Origin: Enoplolaimus lenunculus
Lineage: Eukaryota
Reading direction: 5' to 3'
Assembly (NCBI GenBank): GCA_030248215.1
Contig: JASANG010000753.1
Span: 434,001 to 498,000, forward strand
Length of the DNA: 64,000 bases
In this document: positions 5,195-61,418 of the stretch, one piece after another
Numbering within the stretch: the first letter of the stretch is position 1
Layout: each line of letters begins with the position of its first letter
Translations under genes and position numbers: made by a program
Notes under the pieces: generated by a model
Told to the model about the DNA's origin: nothing
The model's database searches: none
What the model saw: the letters and a program-made list of their open reading frames with translations, nothing else

Positions 5195-5465
5195 TTAGCC
5201 CTCTCACTCATAGAGTATACTGTGAGCAACTAAATACAATAATATCCGAGCAATATAGACACTGTGAGCAGTGTTTAACATTTATAAGATATGTGCGCAG
5301 TGCAAAATCTTCATTAGAGGTGTGAGACCCCTCGGGCTCGAGCGTCAAGCTCCTATAGCTCAGCGGTCATCGTAAACGCCTCCCACCCGTGAGACTGGGA
5401 GTCGAAACTTACATTGAAATTACATCTCATGTGAAATTGAAAATATTCATGTGACAAAGGGTTAA
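5195..5465 (+). mobile_element. piggyBac-like MITE carrying tRNA-like A/B boxes
   Basis: TTAG-CCC ... GGG-TTAA ends; internal TAGCTCAGCGG (A box) and GTCGAAAC (degenerate B box). Copies at 8325-8595, 42143-42420, ~46290-46480, ~46992-47068 (internally deleted) and ~60240-60580. Confidence 0.65.
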
Positions 5466-5607: not shown

Positions 5608-8600
5608 ATGAATTGTAAAAGGTTAATAGCACTAAATATATTATTAGTGATTTTGTTCTATAACCAAACTTCTGCATCAGAAGGCACCCACGTTAGAGCA
5701 GGTAAGTTGCACTAAATTGCCTGATTTTTTGGCCCATGTTACTTTAAGGGGCGTCCAGGTTTCTGGTGGTTCTACTAAAAAGTAGGTTTAGATTTTAGAT
5801 TACATTTTTTGCTTAGGCTTATACTTAGGAACTCATTTTGCAACGCTTAGGCTTAGGCTTAGGCTTAGGAATACGCTTAATCTACTCTTACGCCCTCAAA
5901 GTAACATCGGTGGATTTTTTCATAATTGATCCGCCTGTGATAGAAGTTGTTGCCAGAGGGTCGCCTGGGTCACCTCCCCTTCTGCGGGCCTTTTCTGTCA
6001 TAAAGTCAATTGTTTGGCAAGGATATCCGAGACTGGGGCAGGCTGGGCCTCTCCTTAGCTGAGTAAGCTCTGCGACCAACTTTTTAAGCTTTCTTGAAGA
6101 CCGCATGATTTTGTAGACCAAAGAAACGAACCAGTTCAAATGGTCAGTGTCATGTAGGCGCTATGGTTGAAGGAAATTTTGCGAACAAAGCTAGCTGGAA
6201 GCTAGAAACGCTATTACTTGAACACATGTACCAAACCATAATTTGAAGTGTGTCTTGGGTAATCGAATGCAAAAATAACTAGCAAAGGTCTTTTCAACCG
6301 ATTGAAACCAGCCGCAATTTTTGACCCTTGAAAAAATATCTGGCCAGTTTGGCTCCATAGAAAACTCTTGAGCGAAGCGAACGTGAAGCCAGAGGCATGT
6401 GTTTGTATTCAAAAACATTAAAAATTTTATTTGTTCTTCAGCGCTCGACCCTGTTTAAGCCGGGTGGACCCCACCCAATCTGGGTAGGGCCATCCCGATC
6501 TCTGGTGGAACTGCAAACCAGTTAGGTTACATTTTGGACTATATTTTTTGCTTTAGGCTAAAGGCTTATGTTTAGATTTTGGTTTACAACTTTTTCAGCG
6601 CTTATGCTTAGACTGAGGGCTAGGAATATACTTTAAGCCACAATTACTGCCGAAGGGTAACATTGACCAACTCTGCTAACAATTCCTGGTTTACAAGGCT
6701 GTTTCGGCATAAACCTTCTGTCCTGATGTAGATATAAAGATATATAAATGGCAAACATACATGTAAAATAATCGTTTCAAAATTTTGCTTCTCTTGAATT
6801 AGTTCTATTGAACTATTTGAACAGAAAAATATTGTGTCATATTTGGCTCGTTTCGATGTTTCAGGAACGTCAGATGATTTAATGAGTGAACATTCGCCAT
6901 CAATGGTAAGTTTAGACTAATATCCTTTGACAGATTCTGAATTTAGCTGATTTAAATACCAGCTGCACAAAACATTTTCAAGTATTCTTGATCATTCTGT
7001 TTTGTCAAATAGTGTTGTAAAGTTGATTTTTCCACAACCAATGCTTAGATCCGTCGCTGCCACGGTATTTCCAACCGGATGTCTGCCGCCAGCTCCGGTA
7101 TTATCGACCTCCGGCTCCGGCTGCAACTCCGCTAAAAATTTTGCTCGAGGTTCGTTGCAACTGCGGTAGTATTGTATCGTTCAGTGCGTTTGACTTGTGC
7201 GAAAAATGTGCTGAATGTGCTGAATCTTAAGCCTCAGCATTCGTTGGCTTAAAAGTTACAAGACCTATTACCAACTGGTGATAGCTGCTGCTCACTTTTG
7301 ACAATACGAGCCGTTGAATAAAGGATTCATTTTAGAATTGCGATAAAGCTCATATGGATTGAAATAAAAAGTATCACATAAAATTTTTGTTATTGCTGAA
7401 TGCTGTTAAAGTTAAGGTTGCATTACAGTACTCCTGTCTATTTAAAGAAACATACACTGCAAAAAATGGTGAGTCAAATTGTCTCACTACGAAACAGACT
7501 ATACGGGACAACACAAACTGAGCCAAATTCGGCTCCGCAAGACTCAAACGTGCGGCTTAGTGAGTCGAATTTTGACTCTGGCGGAGTCGAATTTTACTCA
7601 GTTTGTGTAGTTCCATAGAGCCTATTTCGGAGAGAGTCAATTTGACTCACCATTCTTTTGCCGTGTAGTTTCGGAATGTGGGGATAAATGAGTAGCATAG
7701 CCCCTTTTTTTAGCTGAATTTTATGTAGTCAACTATGTTTCAGGCTTTAATTCCGGTCTACGCTAGTGCTTCCTCAGGTAAGTCTAAAAAATTCTATTGA
7801 TTACATATTTCCCGTAGGTACGTGCTATTTGTTTATTTTTCTCAAACTGAACCGTTGTTTGAATATAGTTCTTGGCTATTAATGCAATTTCCACAATATC
7901 ATGCGTACACCAGGTCACTTTTGAAAGGGGAAGGGGGTAGCGTGATGAGCACTGAAACGTTTTTGGCTTTAGTGTTCATCACGCTACACCCGTCAAAAGT
8001 CACCCGACGTACGCATGATATTGTGTAAATTGCGTTACTATTACATTTTTAATGACGACTGTATACAATGAATGGCGATAAACGGGTAGTAAAAATAACG
8101 GAAACAAAAACGGATATCCATGGATACCCACTGTTGGGTGTACGCGAGCAAGCTTTGATACATGAGGATTAGACCAGTATGAGTAAACCGCATAAAGTTT
8201 CACAATCACTACGGAATTTAAAGACGGGACGAGTACAACAGTTGTTGGCTTTTGTATACTTTCCACTACACATTTAAAGTTTAGGATTAGGCTTAGTCTT
8301 ATAGTCAATGTCTTATGGTTTTGCTTAACCCTTTCTCGCATAGAGTTGACTGTGGGTAACTAAGCGTAGTGTACATACGTTAAATAGTATATATCGCGCA
8401 GTGTTTAACAATTGCAACACGTATACATAGTACTAAATCACCACAAGACGTCAGAGCCCCCGCGGGCTCGAGCGTCAAGCTCCTATAGCTGAGTGGTGAT
8501 GGCATACGCCTCTCACTGCAGTCACTGGAGTTCGAATCCTAGCATAAAAGTAGGTCTCAGGAGAAATAGAAAATATTCATGTGATAAAGTGTTAAGTAAA

Positions 8601-9635
8601 CCTTTTGCTAAAACTAATCCGAACCTCAAATGCGGGGATACTGTACAAGTGCCATACCTACATTTCGGTATATCTTGTATGGTGCTGACAAACGATTTGT
8701 TTCAGGCAACGCCGAACACGGATTATCCCGTCGTAAACGAAGCACAAGCGGATTTTTAGTATCGTCTGGTGATATAACATCGCCCGCAACTGTCCTGGAT
8801 CCCGATATAGAATCAGAACTTGACCCACTGTCAGACCCCGAAGCAATGTCGTTGCTGGTCGATGAAATCAAAAAATCCCACAGCCTTCGATCTGCCGATT
8901 ATCCCTTAGACGTGGACGCCGGCGAAAACGGATATCTTATTTGGTCTCCTGATAGTTCTGAAATTTTACGCCGTAGTACTCGCGCCACACGATCAAGAAT
9001 GGGACTGTTGTTTTTAGGAGCGAATCCACTTGCCGGATACCAAGATGCAAGCGATGTGCCCGTTCACGTACCCGAGAAGCGAAGAACTGTCAAACTGTTG
9101 AACAGTATGAATTATAATCGATTCTACCAACCGTCTCCTTATTCGACGTCTGCTCGCTATGGATACGGTAAACGTGTGAATGGTTATTATAATTATTGTA
9201 AGTACTTAGCTAGTTTAAATAAATTAGGTTCGTAGCTAAAAGGTTCATTCGTTGACGGTACAATATCACCCGTATCAGAAACTTAACCAGGATTTCAATT
9301 CGGGATGGTGTAACGTCAAGAAATTTTTAGACGAAAAGATTCCTGCGACGCAATTCTAAACCTGTAATACTGCCGTTGGACCTCCAGCAATTTTGAAATG
9401 GCATAACTATATTACCCTATTCGCTCTTTATATACGCCCTTTTAGTGCTTTTCTACTTGGACGCGTAGCGAGCGAAAAGAAATAAGGGACCTTAATAATT
9501 CAACGTTTATTGAAACCTTTAGGACTTACCTTCATCCCGTCTCTGTAAAATTTTGATACCTGTACGTATGTCTTATCCCATACGCCTATAGTACTAATTT
9601 ACTTAGTATTTTAAGTTATTTTAGCTAATGAATAA
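5608..9635 (+). CDS. Secreted neuropeptide/prohormone-like precursor (~223 aa, 5 coding exons)
   Basis: Exons 5608-5701, 6865-6905, 7744-7777, 8706-9197 and 9625-9635 join in frame via GT...AG (TTTCAG acceptors, GTAAG donors). N-terminal signal peptide MNCKRLIALNILLVILFYNQTSA; RRKR and KRR cleavage sites; amidation motif YGYGKR; AATAAA overlaps the stop. The last exon is less certain (unspliced stop at 9235). Confidence 0.7.
7455..7665. mobile_element. Foldback EnSpm-like MITE (CACTGCAAAAAATGGTGAGTC termini)
   Basis: Long inverted arms, CAC...GTG ends, TA flanks; lies in an intron of the neuropeptide-like gene. Confidence 0.75.
8325..8595 (+). mobile_element. piggyBac-like MITE with tRNA-like A/B boxes
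   Basis: TTAA-CCCTTTCTCGCAT ... ATGTGATAAAGTG-TTAA; A box TAGCTGAGTGG, B box GTTCGAATCC. Confidence 0.7.
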
Positions 9636-12004: not shown

Positions 12005-12990
12005 CTTATGCGTGGTTCACGTTATAACTGGGGCCGTCGGGTCACGTTTTGTCACATGTTGATTCGACATGAACATAAATTTTTGCTACCATCATATAAT
12101 ACGGACAGACAAAAGTCGAATATCATGTGATATTTCTATACAAAGCGCGGGTACACAGGTGATGTCAACATACAAAGGTTCGTATGTCACGTGACACTAT
12201 CAGACATATTGATGAATATTATATGATATTCCAAATTAACAACATATATGATATGATATTCAGCAAGACGGATTTGGAGTATCATATGATGCTTTACTAT
12301 ACAATTTAAGTGCATTATATGATATTTTATTATGTAATTTTTGACATATCATAAGACAATCCGCCAAAATTTGAATGTATTCACCAAAATTTGAATTTTC
12401 CTACCAAAATTGGAATTTTCCCGCCAAATTTTGTTTCCCGCCAAATTTTGTATTTTCCCGCCAAAATTTCAAATTTCCCGCCAAAATTTGAATTTTCCGC
12501 CAAAAATATCATTTGCCCGCCAAATTTTGAATTTTCCCGCCAAAATTTAAATTTCCCGCCAAAATTTGAATTTCCCGCCAAAATTTGAATTTTCCGCCAA
12601 AAATACCATTTTTCCCGACAAATTTTGAATTTTCCCGCCAAGATTAAATTTCCCGCTATAGATGTTATTAGTATGTTATATACATTGTCTCATTATATCA
12701 TATGATACTAAAACGGCACATTTCTGTTAGTACCTATCATATTCCGCCATACGCAATCCTACTTGACTGACTCAGTAGACATATTCAAAATGATCATAAG
12801 ATAATGACAGACGATGTTGGGAATATCATATGATATTGAAAGACACAAGGTGACCGATACATGATGTTAGCAGACAACGAGTGTTTTTGGAATATTGGGT
12901 ACATCGCAGACAAAATGTTACCCAACATATATATAGGGCGTGACAAAACGTGACCCAGTTGCACCATTTATAACGTGAACTCCGCATTAG
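12005..12990. mobile_element. ~985-bp TIR element containing a TTTCCCGCCAAAA tandem array (12361-12656)
   Basis: CTTATGCGTGGTTCACGTTATAA is inverted to TTATAACGTGAACTCCGCATTAG; second inverted block GGGTCACGTTTTGTCAC / GTGACAAAACGTGACCC; central ~19-20-bp repeat units. Confidence 0.65.
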
Positions 12991-14132
12991 GCATAGTTAA
13001 GAAATTTTTGCTTTTCTTATTTCAAACAGCATTTTTCAAAACGATTTTTGCAATCGAAAAGCCCTTTGGATTTTTGACACGAGTCCTTGCATGTGCTCGC
13101 GTATTATTCTTGTTCTTTATAAATATTTGTGTTGAAAAGTAAAATTGGGTCATATTTAAAAACAATTCGATTTTGTATTAAAATAAACTCTTAAGCAGCT
13201 TATAAACTTTTACAGAAAACGAAAACTTACAATAGCGTGCGGCCAAATTGTATACAAAGCATCTATGCCTATGCTTTGTAACTGTTGCGGCCCTGTTTTA
13301 TACACTGGCCATTATTTTATGAATATGCTAGAGCAACTGTCCATGTTCTGGGTAACAGGGAAACATATACGTTGTCCATCAGGGTGCAACCGGAGGTGAA
13401 GAAATCGGAAGTCGGAGCTGGAGCCGAAGGTCAAACCATTTTCCCGAAGCCTTTAAATTTGTCAAAAGACATCAACTCTCAACTAGGGCCCAACTTTCAT
13501 GAACATAAGAAAAATTTCATTTATGCCAAAATTGCCGGAGTTTGGGCAGATATTCTACCGGAACCGGAGTTGAAGGTCTATTTTGCAGAAACCGGAGGCA
13601 GACTACTTATTTTATATTAACGCCGTCCATGAATAGGACTCAAGGGAAGGGTCTGTTTTATCCTATAATTTTTATAAAGCAAGCGATATATCTTTTCTCA
13701 TGCAAAACTATATAGCTTTGTTGCATCTTATGGAGTGCGATTTTATCCTTTTTCCATACGAAAATGTATAACTATCTTACTTCCTTGCTTTTCTAGTAAC
13801 ACCAGAAAGCTATCCAGTTTACTCGTTTGAACGAAACACGGTTGTCTCTTTTTTCATAAAGTTAAGCTATTTTGCCCAAACGCCTTAACAGATGCGTTTC
13901 ATATTAATACATAGCTAGGAGGTTCGTGCCTATCGCATAACCGTTTTTCGGACTAGCAATCCTTCCAATTATATCAAATAGTGAAATGGATTTGAATCAG
14001 GATCAAGCAGAATTTCGATTCTGGTGTGGGAAGCCGATACTTTTGCTATCCGGTTTCGGTTTGTTATCACCGTGTTGTTGGTGTCAGTCTAGGTATGAAC
14101 CAAGGACATCAGACCTTTTACTAAGCAGCTGG

Positions 14133-14214
14133 AAAAGCGGGCTAGAGCGGGGATCGAACTCTCAACCTACGGATCCTTAAGCGAATACTCTACCACTGCA
14201 ATACGCAGCCCGCC
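14133..14214 (-). ncRNA. tRNA-like Pol III cassette within outer TRIM LTR (second copy 14494-14575)
   Basis: Minus strand GGCGGGCT..., A box (TAGCGCAGTGG in copy 2), B box GTTCGATCC, ...AGCCCGC-TTTT. Flanks extend the terminal stem to ~20 bp. Anticodon and T stems are imperfect, so it is not a canonical tRNA. Confidence 0.6.
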
Positions 14215-14607
14215 TGTCCAACTGCATTTTTCGTCGACTATATGTCGACCGTATGATGCCAGAAAGCATACAACACTATTTGCATTGCATTTATTGCATA
14301 TGCACTAGGACAAGCATGTCTCACATACTTACATGCCCTTATTTTCAACAAGGTCGTCCCTTGACCGTCCATCCTATTTTCGACTGGACACCGTATTCAT
14401 AGCGCGGCAATTGACCTTTGCGTCCACGGAGTAGCCCCCATGTCAATCTAGGCAGGAACCGAGGGACATCAGACCTTTCAACTAAGCAGGTGGAAAAGCG
14501 GGCTAGAGCGGGGATCAAACTCTTAGCCTACGGATCCTTAAGTGAGCACTCTACCACTGCGCTACGTAGCCCGCCTTTCCAACTGCATTTTTCGTCGACT
14601 GTATGTC

Positions 14608-15126
14608 TGTCGGTATATGTGTACGTAAGCGTATGTAAAGCAAATGTTGCCATGCCTGTGCACATATACCGGTATAAGAAGTTGTTGCAACGGCCGCGTG
14701 GTGTAATGGGTAGCGCGCTTGACTCGCGAGCGAGAGGTCCGAGGTTCGATTCCCGGCGTGGTCACTAACTTTGGGCAAAACTTCAAACGGGGGTCGTGCA
14801 GACCGTATAGTACCAACATGGAGGTCCCACCGAGACGGGCACTGCAAACAGATAGCCCATGAATTCGGGTAGTTGGATTCGCGGTCCGGGACGACCGCCT
14901 GTAAAAAAAGAGGGATGTCGGTATATGTGTACGTAAGCGTATGTAAAGCAAATGTTGCCATGCCTGTGCACATATACCGGTATAAGAAGTTGTTGCAACG
15001 GCCGCGTGGTGTAATGGGTAGCGCGCTTGAGTCGCGAGCGAGAGGTCCGAGGTTCGATTCCCGGCGTGGTCACTAACTTTGGGCAAAACTTCAAACGGGG
15101 GTCGTGCAGACCGTATAGTACCAACA
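14608..15126 (+). mobile_element. Inner TRIM (519 bp) with tRNA-like cassette in its LTRs
   Basis: Two 211-bp LTRs (14608-14818, 14916-15126; TGTCGGTA...TACCAACA; one mismatch seen). PBS TGGAGGTCCCACCGAGA (14819-14835) is complementary to the conserved eukaryotic tRNA-Gln 3' end. PPT AAAAAAAGAGGGA (14903-14915). 5-bp TSD ATGTC; the empty site is visible in the other outer LTR (~14242). Confidence 0.92.
14692..14764 (+). ncRNA. tRNA-like cassette within inner TRIM LTR (second copy 15000-15072)
   Basis: Acceptor-like GGCCGCG/CGTGGTC-A, A box TGGTGTAATGG, B box GGTTCGATTCC; mismatched anticodon and T stems. Confidence 0.65.
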
Positions 15127-15637
15127 ATGTCGACCGTATGCTGCCAGAAAGCATACAACACAATGTGCATTGCATTTATTGCATATGCACTATGACAAGC
15201 ATGTCTCACATGCTTACAGTTGGTATATGTGGTGTAGCATATGTATGTATGTGCATAGTGTGTGTCAGTGGCATGAGCTGATTAAGTTAGAAAAATAGAC
15301 GATGATATTTTCCTTTGAACAGTGCCAAAAGCAAAATTTTTTGAAAATTGAATAATTAACAACCTCGCAAGCAATAAGCTAAGCGTAATTTTTGTATCTA
15401 ATGTAAATTATGACGCACGAACTGATTCCGATTGGTGGGGCGTGGTCCCCTGCCACCCCTCTCGGTACGTCCCTGGTGTGTGTAATGTGAAACACACTTA
15501 ACGTGCCGAATGTTTTTATATTAGAGTAAAAATTTAAGTACAATTCATATTTGAGCTTTGGAGTGTCTGAACTGTTCTCTCAATTTTTGCAGAGTTATGC
15601 ATTCATTTGGCAGCAATAAAATTGTATTTGCAATGCT

Positions 15638-16600
15638 ATGGCTGATGATTTCGAAGATGAAACCCTTGATGTTATTGACGTTGGTGTTAAGGACTCCGTG
15701 ATTGAAAATTTTAAAATTTTTAAAAGTGCGTATCGTAACGGAGCAATAGAAGCCGAAGAAAAATGTCTTCAAGATGGTTTCGAATGTGGATTCAATGATT
15801 TTCGACAGTTGAGTCGACTCATAGGGCGTTTGGAAGGAAAGATTATTGTTGCGCAGAAGCAGTTCAAAGTAATCTTGTCACATCTTCGTATACAGTTATA
15901 CCAGTTGTTAATGATTTTATTGCTTCGACGCCTCATCCCAATTATAACATTTAGCCGTTAACTGAGTAAGAATAAGTGCCGTTTCCAACTGCGCGCGTAT
16001 AGGCTCTTCTATGGTATTAATTAAAGTGTTTTATTTCAGATGGTAAATTAATTTACACATTCCTCGATTACTTTTACTGTCCGGTTGCTTGCAGTTTAGT
16101 TAAGCTAAAGAGTGCGTAGTATTTTACAACGTTGCCGAGAGTGGTTATCATGTATACACATGTATTGTATATTTCAGTCAATATCCAATGATACAGACAA
16201 AATTCAGTTTTGTAGTGTTGAACTTTAGGATAGGAGCAGTTTTGGCAAATTGGATGAACTATCAAAGCAACTTAAACATATTAAAGCTGATTTAACGAGT
16301 CTAACTGTGATGCAAGAATCACATGGAACTGTCCTCGCAAGTGATTTGACCGACGAGTTTTCAATCGAAAATACGAGCACTGTGATCGATATGCCAAATA
16401 CGGATGATATGGATGCATTTATGCTCGAAGAACAAACATCTAACTCGAAAGAAGCAGGGTATAAAATTTCGGATAATAGATTAGAAGATGATATCTGCTT
16501 CAGATTTAGAGCTAAAGTTAGCGAGCAATTGGAGATCATTTCTACGAAGTTAAATGATTTGGAATTGTCAGTGCAGAATGTGGTAGCTGCTGAGGTGTAG
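15638..16600 (+). CDS. YAE1: YAE1-like protein (Yae1_N domain), ~200 aa, 2 exons
   Basis: Exons 15638-15868 and 16229-16600 join in phase 0. AYRNGAIEAEEKCLQDGFECGF fits the Yae1/Lto1 motif GYRDG-x9-QxGFxxG. Confidence 0.7.
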
Positions 16601-30809: not shown

Positions 30810-31236
30810 TAACCGGGAACTATTTTTAGCTGGGGAGGGGTAGTAATTTTTTTCGGGTTAACCAGGAACTGTTTTTAGCTGAGGGGGCTAGTAATTTTTT
30901 CGGATTAAGCAGGAACTGTTTTTAGCTGAGGGGGCTAGTAATTTTTTTTCGGGTTAACGAGCAACTGTTTTTAGCTGAGAGGGCTAGTAATTTTTTTCGG
31001 CTTAACCAGGAACTATTTTTAGCTGAGGGGGCTAGTAATTTCTTTTCGGGTAAACCAGGAAGTATTTTTAGCTGAGGGGGCTAGTAATTTCTTTTCGGGT
31101 TAACCAGGAACTATTTTTAGCTGAGTGGGCTAGTAATTTTTTTCGGGTTAACCAGGAACTATTTTTAGCTGAGGGGGCTAGTAATTTCTTTTCGGGTTAA
31201 CCATGAACTTTTTTTAGCTGAGGGGGGCTAGTAATA
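30810..31236. repeat. Tandem repeat, ~48-bp unit x ~9
   Basis: Unit TAACCAGGAACTATTTTTAGCTGAGGGGGCTAGTAATTTTTTTCGGGT. Confidence 0.9.
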
Positions 31237-31945: not shown

Positions 31946-32479
31946 ATATATATATTTATTTCTATTCGTATATATCCTTCCGAAATGTAATCCTGACTGC
32001 ACCTTTGAGCAACGGTACCGTTTTAGTCACAAATTTACCCGGTGGATAATGCTGGTAATGTTCACTGCCTTGACAACCAGTTTAACTGTTACCTGTCTCA
32101 GTTTTATGTTGATGTGAATTGGTCGGAAGCTAATAATTTATACCCTGAGGTGTACTTATACTGTGCTATATAGGTAATATACACATATATATACATATCA
32201 TATATATGTGTGTACGCAGGCTCATGCCAGCTTGTTTTTTCAGGGGGGGGCACCTCTGGCTACGGACCCACATGTATAGTTGATATGCAATATATGTTTA
32301 TATGTATATATAGCAACTTTGTACTATTTTGGAAAAAACCTAATTTTACGAGGCGAATGTTTTAAGCATAGTGAAACTTTGGTACTGAGGACGAGAATAA
32401 GCCTCAGAGACTACTGCGTAGTTTTGCTAGGGTTGCTTCTGGGTCCGCGTATTCAGGGTGTTTATTTTCAATCAAAATG

Positions 32480-33420
32480 TCCGGGTCCGGATATGATTGG
32501 CTTTATGAAATTCCTCATCCGCGATTTTGTCTTTATTTCCGGGTCCGGATATCATTGGTGGTATGTAATTCCGAATCCGGATTTTGACTTTTTAGAAATT
32601 TCTGGGTCCGGATATTATTGGTTGTATGAAATTCCGAATCCGGATTTTGACTTTTTAGAAATTTCTGGGTCCGGATATTATTGGTTGTATGAAATTCCGA
32701 ATCCGGATTTTGACTTTTTAGAAATTTCTGGGTCCGGATATTATTGGTTGTATGAAATTCCGAATCCGGATTTTGACTTTTTAGAAATTTCTGGGTCCGG
32801 ATATTATTGGTTGTATGAAATTCCGAATCCGGATTTTGACTTTTTAGAAATTTCTGGGTCCGGATATTATTGGTTGTATGAAATTCCGAATCCGGATTTT
32901 GACTGTTTAGAAATTTCTGGGTCCGGATATTATTGGTTGTATGAAATTCCGAATCCGGATTTTGACTTTTTAGAAATTTCTGGGTCCGGATATTATTGGT
33001 TGTATGAAATTCCGAATCCGGATTTTGACTTTTTAGAAATTTCTGGGTCCGGATATTATTGGTTGTATGAAATTCCGAATCCGGACTTTGACTTTATTTC
33101 CGGGTCCGGATATTATTAGTTTTATGATATTTCGAATCGGGATTTTGACTTTTTAGAAATTTCTGGGTCCGGATATTATTGGTTGTATGAAATTCCGAAT
33201 CCGGACTTTGACTTTATTTCCGGGTCCGGATATTATTAGTTTTATGATATTTCGAATCGGGATTTTGACTTTTTAAAAATTTCTGGGTGCGGATATTAAT
33301 GGGTTTTATGAAATTTCCGAACACGGATTTTGACTTTATTTCCGGGTCCGGATATTATTGGTTTTGTGATATTCCGAATCCCGGATTTTGACTGTATGAA
33401 GATTTCCGGGTGCGGATGTT
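32480..33420. repeat. Minisatellite, 63-bp unit x ~15
   Basis: Unit CCGGATATTATTGGTTGTATGAAATTCCGAATCCGGATTTTGACTTTTTAGAAATTTCTGGGT; homogeneous centre, diverged edges. Confidence 0.95.
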
Positions 33421-35643: not shown

Positions 35644-38600
35644 ATGTCGAAACAACAACGCCTGATGTCTGAACATCCGCCACAGGATTCGGATGTGATT
35701 TTTCGGCTGCCTCCGTTCTGGTATATGCACGTCCTCGATCTCAATTCAAATGTGACACGCGTTGAAGTTGGCCCAAAGACTTATATTCGAAGTGATAATG
35801 AACGGTGAGTTCGATGATGATGATGATGATGATGATGATGACTGGGGCCAGTCGTACAGGGACTGCTCGTATTGAGCGAAGCTCAGATTCACTTACGTAC
35901 TGACAACATGCTCAAATGCAATTATGGGAATAGCTAATAAAATTCTAAATTAATAAAACACATGTAAATTTTGTGTGTATTAAATATAAATATATATTGG
36001 GGTCAAAACTGTGGTAACCCCGGTTTAACGCTTGTCACAAAAATCGTAGTGACTACGACTAGAGTGGGGTTGTAACAATATTTTGTTCTAAGGTGGCGCT
36101 AAAGAGTGGCAATTTTAAAAATTGCCAGTCGTTAACGCCAGGATATTTCGTTTCCGGTGTCCTCATAAAATGTATTAATGTGAACCCTGCATAATTAGCA
36201 AGGTATTAAACAGTGTGCAAAACAGGAAATTTTGAACGACATATTTATGTGCCTCTTATCCAAAAACCGTACGGAACCGCTCGTCGGACGGATAAACGGG
36301 CGGACATCCATCTTTCGACCCCCTAGTACAAAAACTTTTTGGCCGAAGTATAAAGCCTTCATTTAATTGTGGATGGAATGTATGCAAGAACAGCCGTGAG
36401 TTATGAGTATTAATAAGACCACTCCTTGTGCAATCGTTTTATTTTGGTCAATGTTTTTCGGGGTGGTATTCAATCTGAACAAATCATTTTGTAGGCCTAA
36501 GCTTAATTCTTGATCTTAAATCGTGGAAAACAGTGTACGAGAGCCGTGTCTGATTAATTGTAGATCATCATCAGCATATTATCTGACTTCGGATAGATGG
36601 TGGATTACGCTGATTAAAACTTTTGAAGGTGATTTTTTCATAAGCCCAAGCTTAAGATTTGATCTTAAATGTAGGGGGGATTGTCTAAGAATCGTATATA
36701 TCTGTATTATTATATTACTCTCCCATTGCTATCGTTTCATGTTGGTGAATTTGTTTCAGGGTGGTATTCAATCCAGATCGTATGATTACAATCCCGCCGC
36801 GACACTATTGTGTCGTTGAGAATCCAGTTGTACGCGACGCGGACGGTGTTATATCGACGTATCCGTCCGGCCAAGTGAAGCTGTCACACGCGGATTCAGA
36901 AGTCCGTCAACCGCAAGAACCATTCCCGTTGTATCCTGGTGAAATACTCAAGCAGGTACGTTTGTATATTTGATTGATCGATTGATGGTGGCAAGTAGAC
37001 ATGTGGGACAGGGAACTATGGGTAGGACTGGATATGGCTAGTATTTCTAGTTCGAAAAGCAATGAATGGTTGGGTTTTGCCTGAACAGGCGTTAATGGAG
37101 TTAGGTAGAATTGAAGGAAAGGGTTAATTGATCAATTTCTGTTTAAGGATGTGAATTTTAAAAAATACGATGAATATTTTAGCCAGTGACACCATTAAAA
37201 GTTGTATCGGCGAATTCTGCGCTTCGACTGAAAGCGATATTGGATGTTGTTGGTGACGATGGTGTTGCTCGCAATGCGGGTGATGAATGGCTGTTTGAAG
37301 GACCGGGTGAGTGTGTAGAAGCGTAGGCAATTGATGAAATGATTTCAATTTTCCCATAATTTTTTAATTTTTGAAAAGTAATGATTCGTTTTTGTAAGAA
37401 TTTCCTGATTTTGTTGGAAAATTATAACAGCATGTTGTGCCCCCCGACGCTTTTTGATGAAAGCCCTTAAATTTAACCGAGCGGCAGATGCCGTGTAAAC
37501 ATAAAAATTCAGTGACGGTGGGTGCCGGTCAGAAGTAATACAACGAGTACATATTGAAAACGATATAACGTTTGGGATTGAAGTGTTTTTGTATATCACA
37601 CTGTAGCGCGGCGCTTCCATTAATTTTTTTATGTGAAGTGATTTCTGTTTTTGTAACTCGAGTATGAATTTTGATTGTATTTTTCTTTCTAAAACTTACC
37701 TGAATACAAAACAATTCGTTGGATTGGACTGCTGCCCCTTCACTGTACGTAATAGATTTCACTGCGTGCTCTGTGGGAGGGTAAAATGTTAAAAAATAAT
37801 CCCAATCATAAGCATAGTTTTAAACTACATATAGATGTACTTAATAATCGAGGAAATAGTTTGGCGTGAGCGAAGTTCGTTGGTGTCAGTAAAAATAAAA
37901 ATATCTTAAAGTCTGGATCTTTACAACCATAGAATTATTGCGACATGGTATATCCAACTGATTGTAGAAAACGCATGATCTTTAACGTGTTTAATTCTTT
38001 ATTTAATTTGTTCGCTTCAGGTACTTACATTCCACGCAAAGAAGTGAACGTTGAAGAAACCGTTCGTGCGACAATTATTCGACCAAATCAAGGATTGAAG
38101 TTACGGGCGAGACGCGAAACAACTGACCGCGATGGACATCCGCGAGTAACCGGCGAGGAATGGATGGTGGTCAAGGTTGGTGCGTATCTGCCAGGCGCAT
38201 ATGAAGAAGTTGTTGACGTTGTTAATGCGCACGTTTTGACTGAAAAGGTAGGTTGAAACGCGGTAATGACATAATGTTTGAAATAACCAATTATACCGGC
38301 GCTAATCCAGAATTTTATTTCGGGAGGATAACAACGTTTGAAAATCTTTTTGCAAGTGTGCGTATTGCACGCGAAAAGCTATTGACCTTTGCAGATTTTA
38401 CAGTCTGATTAAGGGTTTTTTCGAGCTTTTCAGAAATTTGTAAGGGAATATTTTCCACGTATCTCCATCTTTTTACACGGCCCTAAGTAATGTACGGAGG
38501 GCACCGGACGGCGCCGCGCGACAAACGTACAATAATGGTCGGCGCCGGACGGTGACGTACAGCGCCGAACGTCATCATCAAAACTATAGTTACCCATAAT

Positions 38601-41600
38601 CGGTATCGGCACATCACTAATTTTGTATAAGATATTCGGTTCGACGTCTCAAAGAGGCTCATATCCACCAAATTACGGAAACAGAGCTATTCAAAATTCG
38701 TATTATAAACGCCACATTTTCGCTGTGTTTTAAATTAAAAAGTTATTAGGCTCGACGTCTCAACAACACTGATATCAACTAAATTAGGTTTAAAGAGTAT
38801 TCAAAATGCGTATAAAAATACGACATTTTGGCTATGTTTCTATTTAATGTTCAAATTTCAATATTTTTTAATTTAAAATATTATAGAAAGCACTTCACGT
38901 CCGCGCGACACGAACGTTCAAAGATCAATTTGGAATTGTGCGCAAGAACGGCGAAGAATGGCTGGTGAAAATGAGCGACGCTGAAGCGTACATTCCGTCC
39001 GTGTATGAACAGGTACGTAAGAGTTGAGTCTAATTGTTTTGTTATAGTGCTGGTGGCGTAGACAGGATAATTATTTTGACCTTAAAGAGTCGGAAGGTTT
39101 TTTAGAGCCTGTATAAATTGAAATTGTGAAGCCTGTTGTGTCTTTCTCTTGTCTCTATAATACTTCGGGGGGTTATTTCCTTGTATTCAATGTTGTATAG
39201 AATCATTAGTCGTGCCTGTGTTCTGACAATGTCTGTAGCACCTATCGCCAGTTTGATTGGTTGTGTAACTTTTAAACTGAAGAATGGTGGGATGAAAAAT
39301 TAACACATTTTTCGTCCAAGAGGCAGCTAAAAATTAATGTAATAATTTAACAAGGATATTAACACAGTACTGTATTTCAGGTGATTGAAGTGGTTGATAT
39401 TCAAACACTTAGCAATCGTCAATACTGTGTTATACTTAATCCGATTGGACCAGATGGCAAGCCGCAATTGGGTAAAAAGAGACTGGTTAAGGTTAGTGTT
39501 TGTTTTATTGTACACTTTACGTAGTAAAAATTGTATTTATTGTATTATCTATACTCCAGAATTAGTGTGACGCTATAGTTTTTGAGCATTTGAATGTCGA
39601 CTGGCACTGTAAGGTAACGCACGTTAATTGCCGCATTCCATCACGTAAAAATGTGTAAATGAAAAATTTTACGATCACCGGATGGCGTCGGACGACACGT
39701 ATAGCGTCACTTTTAGGCGCCGTTCACTGTAATAAGGCAAACCTGAATTAAATTTGGGTGACTGTTACGCCCAGTTTTATAGCAGCATCAGCGAGGGTGC
39801 AGCTTTGCAAGATATTTGAATTTGCTAAAATTTAAGTACTTTTGGGAGAGTGTAGTGGAAATACCTAACTTTTAATTTTTGCCGAATGTGAAACAGAATT
39901 CGAAATTTTGTTGCTACTCTAGAAATGCATGGTTTGCTTTCTATCAGTTCAGAAAGGGACCATGTCTTTTTAAAACTAATGAAAATGTACTTAAAAAGTT
40001 GCTTGAGTCGAAATAGGTAGAAAGTCTATGGTTTTTATTACAGCAGACGCTTAACCAAAGACTAAAGCGGAATTGCGACTTATTTGTGTTTAGCAGTAAT
40101 GAATTTTACTTAAATAGTATCACTTGTCTAATTTATTACAGGGTGAAAAAAGTTTTTTCTTGTTGCCTGGTGAAAGTCTTGCCGCAGGCATTCAAGATAT
40201 GTTTATTTTGGGGGAAGACGAAGGCCTAATCCTTAAAGCACGTGAAGCATTTATCGATACTGAAAATGGAGAGGTAAGTTGATTGTTAATTATTGGTTGT
40301 TAGACGTCTTGTAAATTTCCTGCAACAGCGGGAATCACTTTTCCTGTGCCAAGTCTGGCTAGTAGCTAATACTTATTTCTGTTTTAGTTTCTTAATAGTT
40401 CGCTCAGCATGGTTAGTTTTGGGGGTTCTGTTGTAGGTATTTACGTGGACATAGGAATGTTTTGCCTGTTAGAATTGAACTATAATGTTATTCTGCGGCG
40501 AGTCAGGGACTGGGAGGCATCGCACGTCAAATAATATAGACCGTCACCTTTATGGATTTTATTGAAGGAAATCCAACGAATGCCTGGTGACAAGTGGATG
40601 ATTCGTGGCCCTATGGAGTATGTCCCTCCGGTTGAGCTTGACGTTGTCACTAAACGGGTTGCAATTCCAATGGACGAAAACGAAGGCATTTATGTTCGCG
40701 ACGTGAAATCGGGCAAAGTTCGCGCAGTTATCGGCCAAACTTATATGTTGACCCAGGTAAGTGCTGAATTGAATTGTTTTGTTTCGGTCGGAGTGAAGTT
40801 TTTTTAGATTTTCTAGGTTTTCTTGTGGTTCTAAAAATGATATTATGTTGCCATATATATTTTGACAGAGATTGCGCGTTGCTGTTTTGCGTGCCCTGAT
40901 TTAATATAAATTTATTTGTAGGACGAAGAGTTGTGGTCGAAAGAACTTCCTGCTCCCGTTGAAGCTTTAGTAATGTCTGGACGTGATCCGCTTGCCGATA
41001 GGTAAGTATTACAATGCTGATCAGTTTAAATCGTGTAATAATGCTAAGTTTACTCACTGTAGAAAATTGAAAATACCCTGCAGAGTCAGTGACTGCCCTA
41101 GGCTGCTGGCGAACTGGAGGTGGGCAAACGCATTCTGTTGGGGAAGGGAGAATCAAAGTATTCTGTTCCCTAAAATTCATGTTTTAGTGCTTTGCATCCT
41201 CGCTAAGCACTTATTGTAAATAATTTTTGTTTTGTAATTGGAGCAAAACAGTCGGAGAGGTTAACTACGGAAGGCTTGGATGGCATGGGCTCTTCTAAGA
41301 AATCTAATGTAGTTTAAGACGAAAATAAAACGGACTTTAGCCAGCTTGATTTGAAATAGAAGTTTTCTTGATATGTCTGTGTTTGATTTCTTTGTTTAAG
41401 TTGACAATAAACTAGGGATGCGCCGATTAATCAGCATCGGTAATAATCGGCACTTTTCGCTAGTATCAGTATCGGTACTGCAAAAAATGCCGATTCTTTG
41501 TCTATACTTTTTACACACAATATTGAGTTGGAATGTTATCAATTTCACTTCTTGTCGCACATTAGTGTGTCTGATCAGGGAAACAAACTGTTATCGCTCT

Positions 41601-43237
41601 TGTATTTGTGTTTGAAAAAATTAATTGAAATAAACCGTTCTGGTCAGGATTTAAGTCCTCACACAATGGAGTAATGTAGTATACTATCCTAGATGTTCTT
41701 TAGAAATGGTGTACTGAAATTGGAATCATCATCGGTATCGGCATCAGTTCGGCATCGACACAGCCTTACAATAAACATAGTAACATAATTAAGAATGTTC
41801 TGAGACATTTCATTAAACATTTCTGTTCATTAAGGTCTCGTCATGTAGTGCACAATGATTCACCACATACTCAAGATTTAGTTAATATAAGGTTAGAATG
41901 GGAAAGCATCCGTGTGTAATGCGCTTATTTGCTTGAAATACTAGTCGAAGTCACAACTTTTCTTGCCAATCGCTAACAGTATAATAATTTGTGTGTGTGG
42001 TTTGACTAATGGCCTAAGATTTTGACTAAACTTTTTGTAGCTGCAGTTTTCTAACTCTTTAATGTAACATAATTTAAATTCGAGCAGGGTTTCTAAGTAT
42101 TGGATACTTGGTTGAGCTGAAGACAATAATCATTTTGAATGTTTAACCCTTGCCTGCTTAGAGTGTACTGTGAGCAACTAGTTGCAAACTGTGTATGCGC
42201 AATAAATACACAATGGATAGTGTTTAAAAATTATATAACATGTACGTATTCACGGTATAAAATTTTCACAAGACGTGGGAGACTCATCGTTTTCAGACTT
42301 CAAGCTCTTTATAGCTGAATGATGGTAAACGTCACCAAACCAAGAAGTTGCTAGTTCGAATTTAGTTCTAAATCAGCTCTGAGGTGAAATAGAAAATATT
42401 TCTTATATGAAAAGGGTTATTTACGCGTAATTATACTTTTATTTTGTTTGTATTTAGGTCTGATCGTTCGGAAAAAGACAGCCGTCCTGCAAAACGAAAC
42501 AAAACGCAAGTGGTAACGTTTCGTGTTCCGCATAATGCTGCTGTTCAAATATACGATTATAAAGAGAAAAGAGCACGGTAAGTTCCGTTTTGGTTGCTTT
42601 GGTTAAGACGTTTGTGGACGGCAACATTAAATCCAGGACCTGTATTCTGCTAATGGTTTCTTGTAAAGTGCGTACATGTAAACCTAATTGCGTATTAAAT
42701 AGCGGCTATGATCACGATTCATTGTTTATTGACAATTGCTCGAATACGCGATTTGCACCGCTCGCGGTTACTTCGGCCATAAAGCGACTGCAGTCACGAT
42801 CGCCTAATGGTAAACCTTCAGTTTGTAAATGCAAAACTTGCATTTGCAATTTGAAGAGCGACTGTAACCGTGTCTGTAAAGGCGACTAAATCGCGAGCAA
42901 AGAAAAGTTCAAACGTGAATATAGAATCGCTAACATAATCGTGATTTATCTATGTAATTATGTTTCGGTATTGTTTCAGCGTTGTTTTCGGTCCCGATTT
43001 GGTGATGCTTGGACCGGACGAACATTTCACCCAGTTATCGTTGTCTGGTGGAAAACCAAAACGCCCAAACGTTATCAAATCGTTGTGTTTGCTGTTGGGA
43101 CCGGACTTTTGTACCGATATTTTGACCGTTGAGACGGCGGATCATGCGCGATTGCAGTTGCAGTTGTCGTATAATTGGTATGTTAATGGATGCGTTGTAG
43201 AAACATGATTAAAGTTCTATCTTGACTTCATTCGGTA

Positions 43238-43298
<61 letters not shown>

Positions 43299-46200
43299 TA
43301 ATTTTGGTACTACAAGATACGTATATGAATACGTCTCGAAACCGCAAAAACTGCAGAAACATGATCTATATGTTATTTCGAAGTTTTTGTTAATTGTCTC
43401 TGATTTGCTATAGGCATTTTGATTCTGGTTCGCGTACGCAAGACGATGCTGCGAAACTGTTCAGTGTTCCTGATTTTGTTGGTGATGCATGTAAAGCGAT
43501 TGCGTCTCGTGTTCGAGGATCTGTCGCACAAGTTCAATTTGATGATTTTCATAAGGTAAATAATGGCCTACGCGTGCTTTAGAATATTTACGTTTTTGGT
43601 GAAATTTATTTATCAGAGAGCAGTGCCATATTTTCGAATGTGTGAAGCAGCTGTAATCAGTTAGTTGCGGCTCATGTAGTTTTGGCACCAGTGAATGGTG
43701 GTTTGAAATTCCGCACAGTTTTCTCACATGATTTTCACCCATAAGTGCAGGGTTTCATCAGTTTGAAGACCTATCACTACCTGGTTATAGGTGCTTTTGA
43801 GAATATGGGCGTTGAATATAGTTTGATAGCGCGCACGGTTACTGCAGCAGTTCGCTTGTTTGAAAACCTATAAACCTGGCAATAAGTGCTACTTAGCAGG
43901 CTTGAACCAGGGGACTTTACTTTCGTCTGCAGGAGTAACTTCGGCGAGGATTCGAATACCAACCTTTTTTAGTTATTATTAAATTACTTTTACAGAATTC
44001 AGCACGAATTATTCGTTCGGCAGTGTTTGGGTTTGACGACAATCAACGCGTACGTGACCGATTTGTATTCGCACAGAATAATTTGGTCATAACAAGTATC
44101 GATGTACAGTCTGTTGAACCGGTAGACCAGCGAACACGTGATTCGTTGATGAAATCAGTCCAGTTGGCGATTGAAATTACAACGAATTCCCAAGAAGCAA
44201 CTGCAAGGTAAACGAAATTTACACAGCTAGCATGGTGCAGCCGGATTTCTGGCTCTGGCAAAAAAATCGACATCCGACTCCGGTATTTTACATTGCCGGA
44301 TATTCACTGTTGAAAAGTATGACATTATTCTGCATAATACTATTGTTTACACGACTAAAATTACAATATTTCGCTGTTGATTTATTTTGTTCGAAATCTT
44401 AAAAGTTCTACAGACATGGACCCTGTTAATATTTTGGCTCATGCAAACAAAAGTGTAACATTGCAGCAAGTATTTTGCAGGAGCCGGATATTGAAGTAAC
44501 TTGCTTCGGTTTTTTTGTTATCCGGTTGAACCTTGATTCCTGGGTATGTAGCTGGATTATTATGAGCGCTAGAATGGGCGTTGCGAAAAGTTCTGGGCGG
44601 AGTCTGGTCAAACCGATTGTATATGTGTCTATGTAGTGTGTATGCGAATCAGATCACTCGCGAGACACGAGTATATTATATTTATTGCTGGAATCTTGTA
44701 TTGCTAGAGTTGTTTGTAATCGCAGTAATACTAAAATTAGACGCAAGAACTTAAGTTTTCATAATTTTCTTTCAATGTTGTTTAAGACATGAAGCAGAAC
44801 GTTTGGAACAAGAAGCACGCGGTCGTCTTGAGCGACAAAAGATCGCAGACGAAGCTGGAGCAGAACGATCCCGCAAAGATTTGTTGGAATTACAGGTTAA
44901 CTAGATTTAAGCTTGGTATAAGTTACTAAATTGGTGACTGTGGTGCTTTGTGGGTTAAGTTGTTGGGCTTGCAGAAAAGTGTTTCGTTATCAAAGGATAT
45001 ATTATGTAGATTTCTGGCGGGTAAATTTAATGAAATTAATGTAAAATTCTGTTATGAACGGAATTAATATTGGGTAATAGTGTTATGCAGTTCATTATAG
45101 CGTTAATTCTGCTGTCATATATCTCTCTATTGCTAACACTGCAACGATACGCTAATTGTATATAGCTCGTAACTGATTTTTGTGCCTATAGTTTTGTGTA
45201 TATAAAAGATAAAGCAGAAACGAAACGTAAGAAGAAACTAAATTGCAACGACGTTGACTAGAATGTTTAATTATTTGCATGGCTGTTTTTTTGTTGATCT
45301 GTAGGCTGCGTCGGCTGCAGTTGAAAGCACTGGTCAAGCGAAAGCAGAAGCACAAAGTCGCGCAGAAGCCGCGAAAATTGAAGGCGAAGCCGCTGTCGAT
45401 CAAGCGAAACTTAAAGCTGAAGCTTCGTCAATTGAAACGGTAATTATTTTTAAAGAATTTTATTTAAATATTGTTTCTCGAGTGGATCCGGTGCGGAGAT
45501 TGTGGGCTGACAGCCGCAAGCAAAAATGTTGATACGATCCGGAAGTTACTTTAAAGCCTGTTTGAAAGAAGTTGTGTCCAAGAATACCGGAAGAAGCTAT
45601 GTCCCTTGTTTTCTTCCCTTTGTATACGTCCCTGTTTCCTGTCTCTGATTTTAAAAGCAATGTGAGTTTTATCTAGCCAGAACGGTTTACTGGGTATAGA
45701 TCACGAGGCAAAGGTAAATAACAGGGGCGGAACAGTATTATTAAGTTTATTCCTAAGCCTAAGCCTAAGTATAAGAATGAGTTTATTCCTAAGTCTAACC
45801 TAAGCGAAACAAAAAATTAGTCTAAAGCTTAAGCTTATTCTATATTTGTTCGACGGAAAAACGCTCCGAACCTGATCTTTACATGGGCCGATCACGATAA
45901 TGACCATATATGCTGATAGAAATTCACGCTGGTGTTATTCGTTTTCACTGATCTGCATTTTTAAGACTACAGTGCATTAAAACAAAGGCTTGCCAGTAAG
46001 AAAATGAATAAAAATTTGCACTTCTTAATATTGACATTTTTAAAATTAAATTGTTTTTTTCAGACGTCCGAACTAACGCGGCTACAACAAGCGCGTGTCG
46101 CCGAGCTGAACTATTTGAAAGAGAAGAATCAGTTGGAAATTAACAAATTGCGCGAAACAGCAGGAATCGAAGCTGACAAATTCCGAAATATGGTGGAAAT

Positions 46201-46729
46201 TTTGGGTCCACAAACCATACAAGCGATTGCGACCGCTGGGCCAGAGATGCAGGTACCGATTTAGCGGCAAAGAGCATACTGATAGCCTTATCCCACTGAG
46301 AATACAATGAGCAACTTAGCGCAAACTGTGTGTGCGAGCTTAACTACACACATAATGTGTGCGAGCTTAACTACACACATAATATCTCCACACGATGTGT
46401 CTGGATGAGAGCACGTCCGGCTCGAGTGTTGGATTGTAATGGTAAACGCCTTTCACCCTAAAGATCGGGTGTTCAAGTATTCTGAGTTTTAGTTGACGGT
46501 ATGAATTAACTTGACCCTAGTACCGTTTGTACGTTTGTTTGTTCTTTAGGTCAAACTGCTTAAATCGTTGGGTCTGAAATCAACATTGATCACTGATGGC
46601 TCGACGCCAATTAATTTGTTTCAAACGGCACAAGGATTGATTGGAACTTCGTTTGCGACTGCGCCCGGTCCAAGTCAGCCAATTACAGGACGACCGTTGG
46701 AATCAGTTGATTCAGAAGATGAAACATAA
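35644..46729 (+). CDS. MVP: Major vault protein, ~876 aa, 17 coding exons
   Basis: Exons 35644-35804, 36760-36955, 37183-37306, 38021-38247, 38887-39012, 39381-39491, 40142-40273, 40568-40756, 40922-41001, 42458-42577, 42980-43177, 43414-43555, 43996-44207, 44787-44895, 45305-45439, 46064-46252 and 46550-46729 sum to 2631 nt in frame. Hallmarks: [104 protein letters not shown]. Confidence 0.97.
42143..42420 (+). mobile_element. piggyBac-like MITE (family of 5195/8325) in MVP intron 9
   Basis: TTAA-CCCTT ... AAGGG-TTAT; shares AGAGTGTACTGTGAGCAACT and GAAATAGAAAATATT blocks with the other copies. Confidence 0.65.
43222..43296. repeat. (TA)n microsatellite in MVP intron 11
   Basis: Uninterrupted TA run ~43242-43296. 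Confidence 0.9.
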
Positions 46730-60052: not shown

Positions 60053-61418
60053 CACATAGCTCTAAGCCACGGCCAAAGCCACGATACAGCCGTAGGCCTG
60101 AAAACGGTAGAAAATCGACCTCCGGCTCCGGTAGAATGTTTATGCTGGTGATTTCGGCAATTGTGAGCAACTGAATATAGAAGTTGCACACGAGCAATAC
60201 ATAAATTTTTCGCCGTGTTGAACAACTTTATTATATCCGAGGTATAAAATCACTGGAAGACGTAAAAGCCCCTCACGCTCGAGCGTTCAGCTCCTATAGC
60301 AGAGTGCTCATCGTATTAACCCCTTCTCACATTGAGTTGCCTATAGGCAACTAATCGCAGTATATATACGTTAAATAATGTAATATCGCACCGTGTTTAA
60401 CAATTGCAACACGTCTTACAAATACCAAACCACCACCAGACGGGCGGCCCCCCGGGGGCGGGCGCCCCGCCCCTATCGGGGGGGGGTGGGGGTACACCCC
60501 CCCCCCCCCAGTCTCCGGAGCTCGAACCCCAGAACACAAGTAGGCCTCAGGGGAAAAAAAAAATATACAAAGGAGAAAGGGAAAAACGAAAAATTTTCTT
60601 TTTTTATCTTCAAACCCCCCCCCCCCCCCAGTCTGGGGTTCCACTCACCCCCAAAAAAAAAAATAAAAAAAAAAAAGACAGCAAAGAAAAGGAGAGGAAC
60701 TGAAAAACAAAAACATTACCCACACACTAAAAACTAACCCAAACCAAAAACAACATCCACCCCCCCCCCCTCCCCCACCCATGACTAGGAAGAACAAAAA
60801 AAAAAGAATAAGGAAGTAGAAAAAGAGAAAGAAAAAAGAAGAAAAAGAGCAGCGGAGAGGAAGAAGAAAGGGGCGGGCCGCCGGCCAAGAATAAGTGCAG
60901 CAGAAGGAAGAGAAGAGAGAAGAAAAAAAAAAAAATAAAAAAAAAGAAATCAAAAAAAAGGACGGGGGGGGAACGAACTTCTGGGACCGGAAAAAAATAA
61001 ACTTAAAACTAAATTTATTCTTTGCTTTGGATTTGGCATTGGTACAATAAAATTCAATTCAACTTACTCTTACTCACAATAAAATAAATTTATTTTTTAT
61101 GCAAATGAAAAAAAAATTATTAACACAACGCTCCATTTCACTACCCCTCCCAAAAACAACAACAAAACAAAAAAAAAATTAAAAAAAAATAAGTCCGAAG
61201 CGCTCGTTTGCCGAACACCCCGGGTTTTATTAAAAGGATAAACCACATTTACATCAACGAAAGCAATTATATAAACCAAAGAAGGCAACAACATATTATC
61301 ATAACATAACAAAGGTCCTTGAAAATTACCCATTATTCTACTCTGCTTGCAAGGATATTATTCAGAGCAAATATGTTAAAAAGCACACAAGAAACCTAGT
61401 TTCAGAACAAACTACAAA

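Follow-up and report, generated by a model that had tools for sequence, protein, structure and literature searches.

Helenus elements (TRIMp3) are defined as TRIMs of less than 1000 bp with tRNA-derived sequence in their LTRs (Kojima 2024, PMC10886601). The animal hosts given there are bivalves, chalcid wasps, fishes, Lingula, nemerteans and Mnemiopsis. Table S1 of that paper lists a target-site duplication of 4 bp for 113 of 115 animal families, an undetermined length for two and 5 bp for none, and the catalogued animal lineages are described as Gypsy-mobilised with a 4-bp duplication. Fungal and Selaginella Helenus, in the published descriptions, resemble the elements reported below in their 5-bp duplications, similar lengths (311-724 bp) and, in some sequences, a T run behind the core; their primers are mostly tRNA anticodon loops and they are associated with Copia, whereas the elements here are primed at tRNA 3′ ends and have an animal host. 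Ajax (a nemertean TRIMp3) and Cassandra (a plant TRIM) are likewise described with a Pol III-type cassette in the LTR, and Ajax also comes from an animal and leaves duplications of 5 bp, all as here; their cassette is derived from 5S rRNA, however, and an Rfam search for 5S rRNA gave no match in either of our elements. The element class is already published, with 5-bp duplications known for fungal and plant Helenus and animal Ajax. Helenus receives no more than a brief mention in the available text of two later papers (PMC12859917, PMC13570524), and title-level literature listings contained neither nematode TRIMs nor later TRIMp3 reports.

The stretch of DNA analysed here (64 kb, the window) contains two short LTR elements on opposite strands, one within the other. 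The inner element comprises the following features.

14608-15126, + strand: inner element, 519 bp, LTR-PBS-PPT-LTR, with TGT...ACA LTR ends
14608-14818, + strand: 5′ LTR, 211 nt
14608-14691, + strand: U3 of the 5′ LTR, hairpin-forming
14692-14764, + strand: tRNA-like core of the 5′ LTR, A box 14699-14710, B box 14744-14752
14819-14915, + strand: internal domain, 97 nt, starting TGGAGGTCCCACCGAGA and ending in the PPT
14819-14835, + strand: PBS, 17/17 to a published tRNA-Gln PBS
14903-14915, + strand: polypurine tract (PPT), a 13-nt purine run
14916-15126, + strand: 3′ LTR, 211 nt, core 15000-15072
14603-14607 and 15127-15131: left and right target-site copies, ATGTC, read from the sequence

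The inner PBS is identical at every position to the tRNA-Gln3 PBS given in PMC1592299. The two LTRs are identical at 210 of 211 positions (single mismatch 14723 C / 15031 G), which supports the proposal of the first-pass annotation that this copy is very young. At 14765/15073 and 14789/15097 the two LTRs agree with each other but not with the majority letter of the family in the contigs of the sequencing runs described below, as expected if they were copied from one RNA in one round of reverse transcription. Both cores (A box TGGTGTAATGGG, B box GGTTCGATTC) match the Rfam tRNA model RF00005 at 44.7 and 39.4 bits against a cut-off of 29, and ARAGORN called the 5′ core a tRNA gene; the T stem is nevertheless broken, with three of five pairs, despite passing the Rfam cut-off. 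Calling inner-type cores as tRNA genes would inflate tRNA annotation in this genome. The inner element has no T4 run, only a weak T3 run behind the core.

The outer element lies on the opposite strand and comprises the following.

14082-15218, − strand: outer element, 613 bp without the inner insert
14082-14333, − strand: 3′ LTR, 252 nt
14210-14139, − strand: core of the 3′ LTR, 72 nt in tRNA register, A box damaged, B box 14159-14151 intact
14136-14133, − strand: T4 run behind the 3′ LTR core
14334-14440, − strand: internal domain, 107 nt, starting TGGGGGCTAC, homologous to the inner internal domain
14334-14346, − strand: polypurine tract, 11/13 purines, directly before the 3′ LTR
14423-14440, − strand: tRNA-Pro-like PBS, 8 contiguous and 13/18 matches to the Aplysia tRNA-Pro end
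14441-14607, − strand: downstream part of the 5′ LTR, containing core 14571-14500
14564-14554 and 14520-14512, − strand: A box (intact) and B box (one change) of the 5′ LTR core
14497-14494, − strand: T4 run behind the 5′ LTR core
15132-15218, − strand: first 87 nt of the 5′ LTR (U3)
14077-14081 and from 15219: left and right target-site copies, GTTGG, read from the sequence

The outer 5′ LTR (14441-14607 plus 15132-15218, 254 nt) is split by the inner element. Its alignment with the 3′ LTR has 230 identities, 22 mismatches and 2 gap positions (K2P 0.093), so that the pair is about 9 % diverged. Each outer LTR at the locus has one damaged box: the B box of the 5′ LTR reads GTTTGATCC and the A box of the 3′ LTR is lost, against outer boxes of TAGCGCAGTGG (A) and AGTTCGATCC (B). 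In the majority of mapped contigs the box letters at 14517, 14200 and 14201 are intact, and each LTR departs from this majority independently of the other, which is what decay since insertion would produce. The Aplysia tRNA-Pro end used for the PBS comparison was taken from Kojima 2024 (PMC10886601), and the match is an imperfect one to the few published tRNA-Pro ends compared.

The two elements form a genuine nest. When the insert and one ATGTC are removed the outer LTRs become collinear, and the outer 3′ LTR, a paralogous copy, holds a single ATGTC across the site; the inner duplication is therefore exactly 5 bp. The outer duplication is also exactly 5 bp, since one contig of run X3 carries the uninterrupted form of its insertion site. 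Both lengths are based on one insertion per family. The positions, the LTRs, the inner PBS and PPT, the two 5-bp duplications and the opposite-strand nesting proposed in the first-pass annotation are thus all present in the sequence, and the contrast it drew with the 4-bp duplications of animal Helenus is borne out by the available part of Kojima's table.

A further layer lies beneath the outer element.

14076-14081, + strand: first 6 bases of a third-family LTR stub, including the left GTTGG, from sequence and contig joints
15219-15265, + strand: remainder of the stub with the right GTTGG, truncated near 15265, without a tRNA-like core at the locus

Counted from the T at 14076, 13 of the stub's first 14 bases agree with the beginning of the inner LTR; when the whole U3 is compared with that of the inner element, 20 of 1000 shuffles reach the score. 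Contigs join the stub end to an inner-type core (15265->14691; six in X1, four in X2 and one in X3), and a single X3 contig connects the end of an inner-type internal domain to the stub by way of a purine linker (14906->15219). Together, these joints and the likeness to the inner LTR start indicate that the outer element interrupts an LTR stub, and we read its flank as the truncated LTR start of a third, sister TRIM family. The order of insertion is the third-family stub, then the outer element, then the inner one. A three-level nest of related families is new relative to published Helenus.

Three sequencing runs (X1, X2 and X3; two samples of one study, of a kind guessed to be DNA and possibly the source of the assembly itself) were used to examine dispersal, with contigs mapped at 85 % likeness. 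In X1, summed depth in 150-nt bins was 60,256-182,491 over the elements and 32-44 in six unique flank bins, and the same contrast was seen in X2 and X3. Summed contig depth overstates, and does not equal, copy number; even so, the lowest in-element depths among the X1 rows listed (7,885 and 14,667) imply at least hundreds of copies. From the outer end at 15218, 112 X2 contigs exit into sequences agreeing only 0.36. With depths that exceed those of the flanks by factors of hundreds to thousands, and with varied neighbours, both elements are dispersed families, which supports the earlier reading of them as two TRIM families carrying tRNA-like cassettes, of Helenus type. Target-site duplications were examined at the locus copies, the other copies being seen through depth and loose contig ends. 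The same data bear on whether the structure could be a local tandem duplication or an assembly artefact around a tRNA pseudogene or SINE. The window holds no second copy of either element, and none of the contigs among the rows listed spans the two inner junctions, as such an origin would allow; against it stand the PBS and PPT, LTR ends of the TG...CA type and, at both levels of the nest, duplications of exactly 5 bp, together with the very high depth and varied flanks, and X1 contigs of single-copy depth, specific to the locus, that span both outer junctions. We give this explanation next to no credence. Tandem arrays were considered separately and rejected, the joint 15218->14341 being no more than an ordinary boundary between PPT and 3′ LTR that mapping placed on the other LTR.

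The first-pass annotation had regarded the inner and outer elements as unrelated, which the internal domains contradict. These align with a score of 37.5, compared with 18.4 +/- 3.4 in dinucleotide shuffles, none of 1000 of which scored as high, and the homology persists when the primer sites are left out. The LTRs of the two elements, by contrast, have no significant likeness (86, 327 and 663 of 1000 shuffles as high), and homology between them was rejected. On this sequence evidence, the elements are related through homologous internal domains. Domains of common origin combined with different cores and primers offer a small model for primer switching. Roughly 100 X2 contigs contain the inner core with other sequence on both sides (loose ends at 14691-14692 and 14761), which suggests a further abundant family, either a sister TRIM or a SINE.

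Neither element encodes protein, as had been claimed: the internal domains, at 97 and 107 nt, are too short to hold gag or pol. Four stop-to-stop frames of at least 100 aa overlap the elements, crossing LTR and tRNA-like sequence. Judged by the length of their internal domains, both elements are non-coding TRIMs.

The description of all four LTRs as carrying an A-box/B-box tRNA-like core held in part. The inner cores are Rfam tRNA matches, but the outer cores gave no tRNA match at E<=1, E<=5 or E<=10 and have one damaged box each. What the outer cores retain is the A box, the B box, the 72-nt register and six of seven acceptor pairs (wobble counted), with the T and anticodon arms unpaired. A strict A+B box pattern occurs four times in the window, three of them in these LTRs, compared with 0-1 in 30 shuffles. 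The boxes are near the published Helenus box A (TRGCY, YGG) and box B (GGTTC), not letter-for-letter. Boxes, spacing and register have been kept while the tRNA arms decayed, which suggests that a promoter was retained and a fold lost, as is also reported for Helenus (PMC10886601).

We regard it as very probable that the inner and outer elements are dispersed non-coding TRIMs with an A-box/B-box cassette in each LTR, which likely move through Pol III transcription from that cassette and through the enzymes of an autonomous LTR retrotransposon, leaving 5-bp duplications, that would copy them. By analogy with the Cassandra/Helenus model (PMC10886601), which is unvalidated for Helenus itself, RNA polymerase III would initiate close to the 5′ LTR core. 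The transcript would have to extend past a weak T run (T3 in the inner element, T4 in the outer) and over the PBS and PPT before ending behind the 3′ LTR core, giving about 380 nt for the inner element, with the core as R region; the cores would act as promoters and not as working tRNAs. Host tRNA-Gln (inner) and probably host tRNA-Pro (outer) would serve as primers for reverse transcription in the particle of a candidate Gypsy or BEL/Pao helper. Several points count against this explanation: the T4 run is expected to stop most Pol III transcripts of the outer element before the PBS, Rfam misses the outer cores, the outer PBS matches tRNA-Pro imperfectly, and each duplication length comes from a single insertion. 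With a T4 run behind each outer core, only read-through RNA could be copied.

An alternative is ordinary TRIMs driven by Pol II, in which U3 is the promoter, the core is an inert tRNA or SINE remnant carried as a passenger, and mobility is unchanged. The damaged box in each outer LTR at the locus and the T4 run right after the core favour such passengers, and the U3 of each element folds into hairpins (z -3.0 each) that could hold signals. A passenger would not be expected to keep boxes and spacing while its tRNA arms decay, however; the family majority is intact at the damaged box positions, and a core is kept in both families though their LTRs are dissimilar. On balance we think Pol II-driven transcription unlikely, and prefer transcription from the Pol III-type cassette. 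The inner family, with its high copy number and near-identical LTR pair, would be a practical target for this transcription claim. As a separate matter, 26 X3 contigs carry an adaptor-like end at 14706, presumably a template-switch oligo, which we considered as a transcription start; it was rejected since the A-box sequence at that position is the same as the final five letters of this end, the pattern expected of mispriming. The higher depth of X3 over the inner core was set aside, depth being a poor measure of expression.

Priming of the outer family could in principle be internal, the LTR core being trimmed, provided with CCA and paired with the element's own PBS. Pairing of the core end plus CCA with the PBS is slightly longer (9 contiguous, 14/18) than that of Aplysia tRNA-Pro (8 contiguous, 13/18), at positions where tRNA-Pro acceptor stems themselves vary in the published sequences compared, yet the duplex is weaker, at -22.3 compared with -27.1 kcal/mol for tRNA-Pro. 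The inner core already reaches 12/18 and -20.2 on the same outer PBS, the outer core has no pairing in the T arm, which tRNA-type processing would require, and the inner family is clearly not self-priming (3 contiguous matches). Kojima did not find such complementarity in Helenus (PMC10886601), in the text available. Tested by pairing and duplex energy, self-priming was not supported and seems to us highly improbable; a host tRNA-Pro is the preferred primer.

For the helper, we looked at 86 metagenome loci with the Gln PBS. Their likeness to our elements is confined to the surroundings of the PBS, with four matches longer than 26 nt, and Rfam found no tRNA in the 20 of them searched. Seven of the 86 had an ORF that was scanned by Pfam: four gave BEL, one Gypsy-order pol, one a zinc knuckle only and one nothing. 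In these unrelated contigs the Gln PBS thus precedes BEL gag in four of seven scanned ORFs and Gypsy-order pol in one. Insertions of Cer elements are flanked by duplications of 5 bp, and Cer7 carries the gene for a primer tRNA. The Gypsy element Cer1 of C. elegans has a tRNA-Pro PBS (PMC3315495).

The inner element inserted at a distance of 31 nt from the core of the outer element, on its upstream side. This distance falls within the window of 13-33 bp upstream of tRNA genes described for DGLT-A (PMC5911963); DGLT-A, Ty3 and Tca8 are, in that source, autonomous Gypsy elements of amoebae and yeasts, whereas here there is one insertion, and the outer flanks are varied. A random insertion into the outer element would fall in such a window with a chance of about 7 % (2 x 21 of 613 nt), and we treat the position as a targeting lead only. 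Taken with the location of the outer element in a third-family LTR, it allows a bolder reading, in which three or more related TRIM families driven by Pol III radiated in nematodes, moved by a helper from a class so far unconnected with Helenus (BEL/Pao or a 5-bp Gypsy). The integrase of this helper would favour Pol III promoters as targets, and the cassettes would serve as mutual landing pads. We consider that scenario improbable.

The host lineage was assessed from a gene in the window.

35644-46726, + strand: major vault protein gene, intron-rich, about 15 exons

The predicted protein groups with Plectus sambesii and two further proteins (FastTree 1.0 with 66 rows; UFBoot 100 with 29 of these 66), in a single-gene tree whose rows came from a one-exon search and in which Plectus is the only named nematode or ecdysozoan. 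The host is accordingly placed as probably a nematode. The TTTTCAG splice acceptor is typical of C. elegans; as a uniform motif it was not seen at the splice acceptors here and adds nothing to host placement.

Returning to the published systems, both elements resemble Helenus in being shorter than 1000 bp and non-coding, with an A/B-box core in two LTRs, a PBS and a PPT, and the presence of several families with different primers in one genome is likewise described for Helenus. The outer element shares its tRNA-Pro PBS with Helenus-1_TeGr, the sole Pro-site family in the accessible part of PMC10886601. They differ from animal Helenus in the 5-bp duplication of both elements (one insertion each) and, for the inner element, in the tRNA-Gln PBS, which is absent among the Helenus primers given and from all internal-sequence starts in Data S1 as available. 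Nematodes are absent from Table S1 and from the text of that paper as available, which makes no mention of nesting. All five element motifs were absent from the Helenus/Ajax data file, in a short-motif search by which matches split by line ends could be missed, in agreement with the expectation that the families are uncatalogued as far as that file goes. By its sequence the inner element falls fully within the Helenus definition, and the outer one on boxes and register (plus acceptor stem) only. Both lie outside the catalogued 4-bp animal lineages and are filed under Helenus by structure only. The novelty consists in the host phylum, which is a probable one, in a duplication of 5 bp for tRNA-type TRIMs of animals and in the Gln primer. 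Helenus-type elements would thereby be extended to a further phylum, probably nematodes, and a primer and duplication length unrecorded for animal Helenus would point to an independent origin or another helper.

Several other features of the window were recorded. A dispersed repeat of 255-280 bp with TTAA-CCC...GG-TTAA-like inverted ends, which we take to be a piggyBac-type MITE, is present at 8325-8579, 60316-60569, about 5211-5465 and 42140-42420; at least one copy contains an A-box/B-box pair (8486-8538), and the repeat is possibly a DNA-transposon MITE with a tRNA-type cassette. A Yae1-like ORF at 15637-15961 (+ strand; Pfam E 0.018, below the cut-off) starts about 420 nt to the right of the nest. 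An open frame of 205 aa at 8618-9235 (+ strand) has dibasic sites and a G-K-R motif with no Pfam match, and to our eye resembles a neuropeptide precursor. Tandem minisatellite arrays occupy 32475-33420, 30810-31235 and 12361-12656, and run depth is likewise very high over the array near 12500-12650. Among the metagenome loci, L056, L028, L016, L022 and L008 are BEL/Pao (four) or Gypsy-order (one) elements with a tRNA-Gln primer site. L063:1-1310 has a Gln primer site and, about 930 nt further on, a 100 % copy of 123 nt of upstream sequence; with no long ORF and no Rfam tRNA, it is a short non-autonomous LTR element of another organism.
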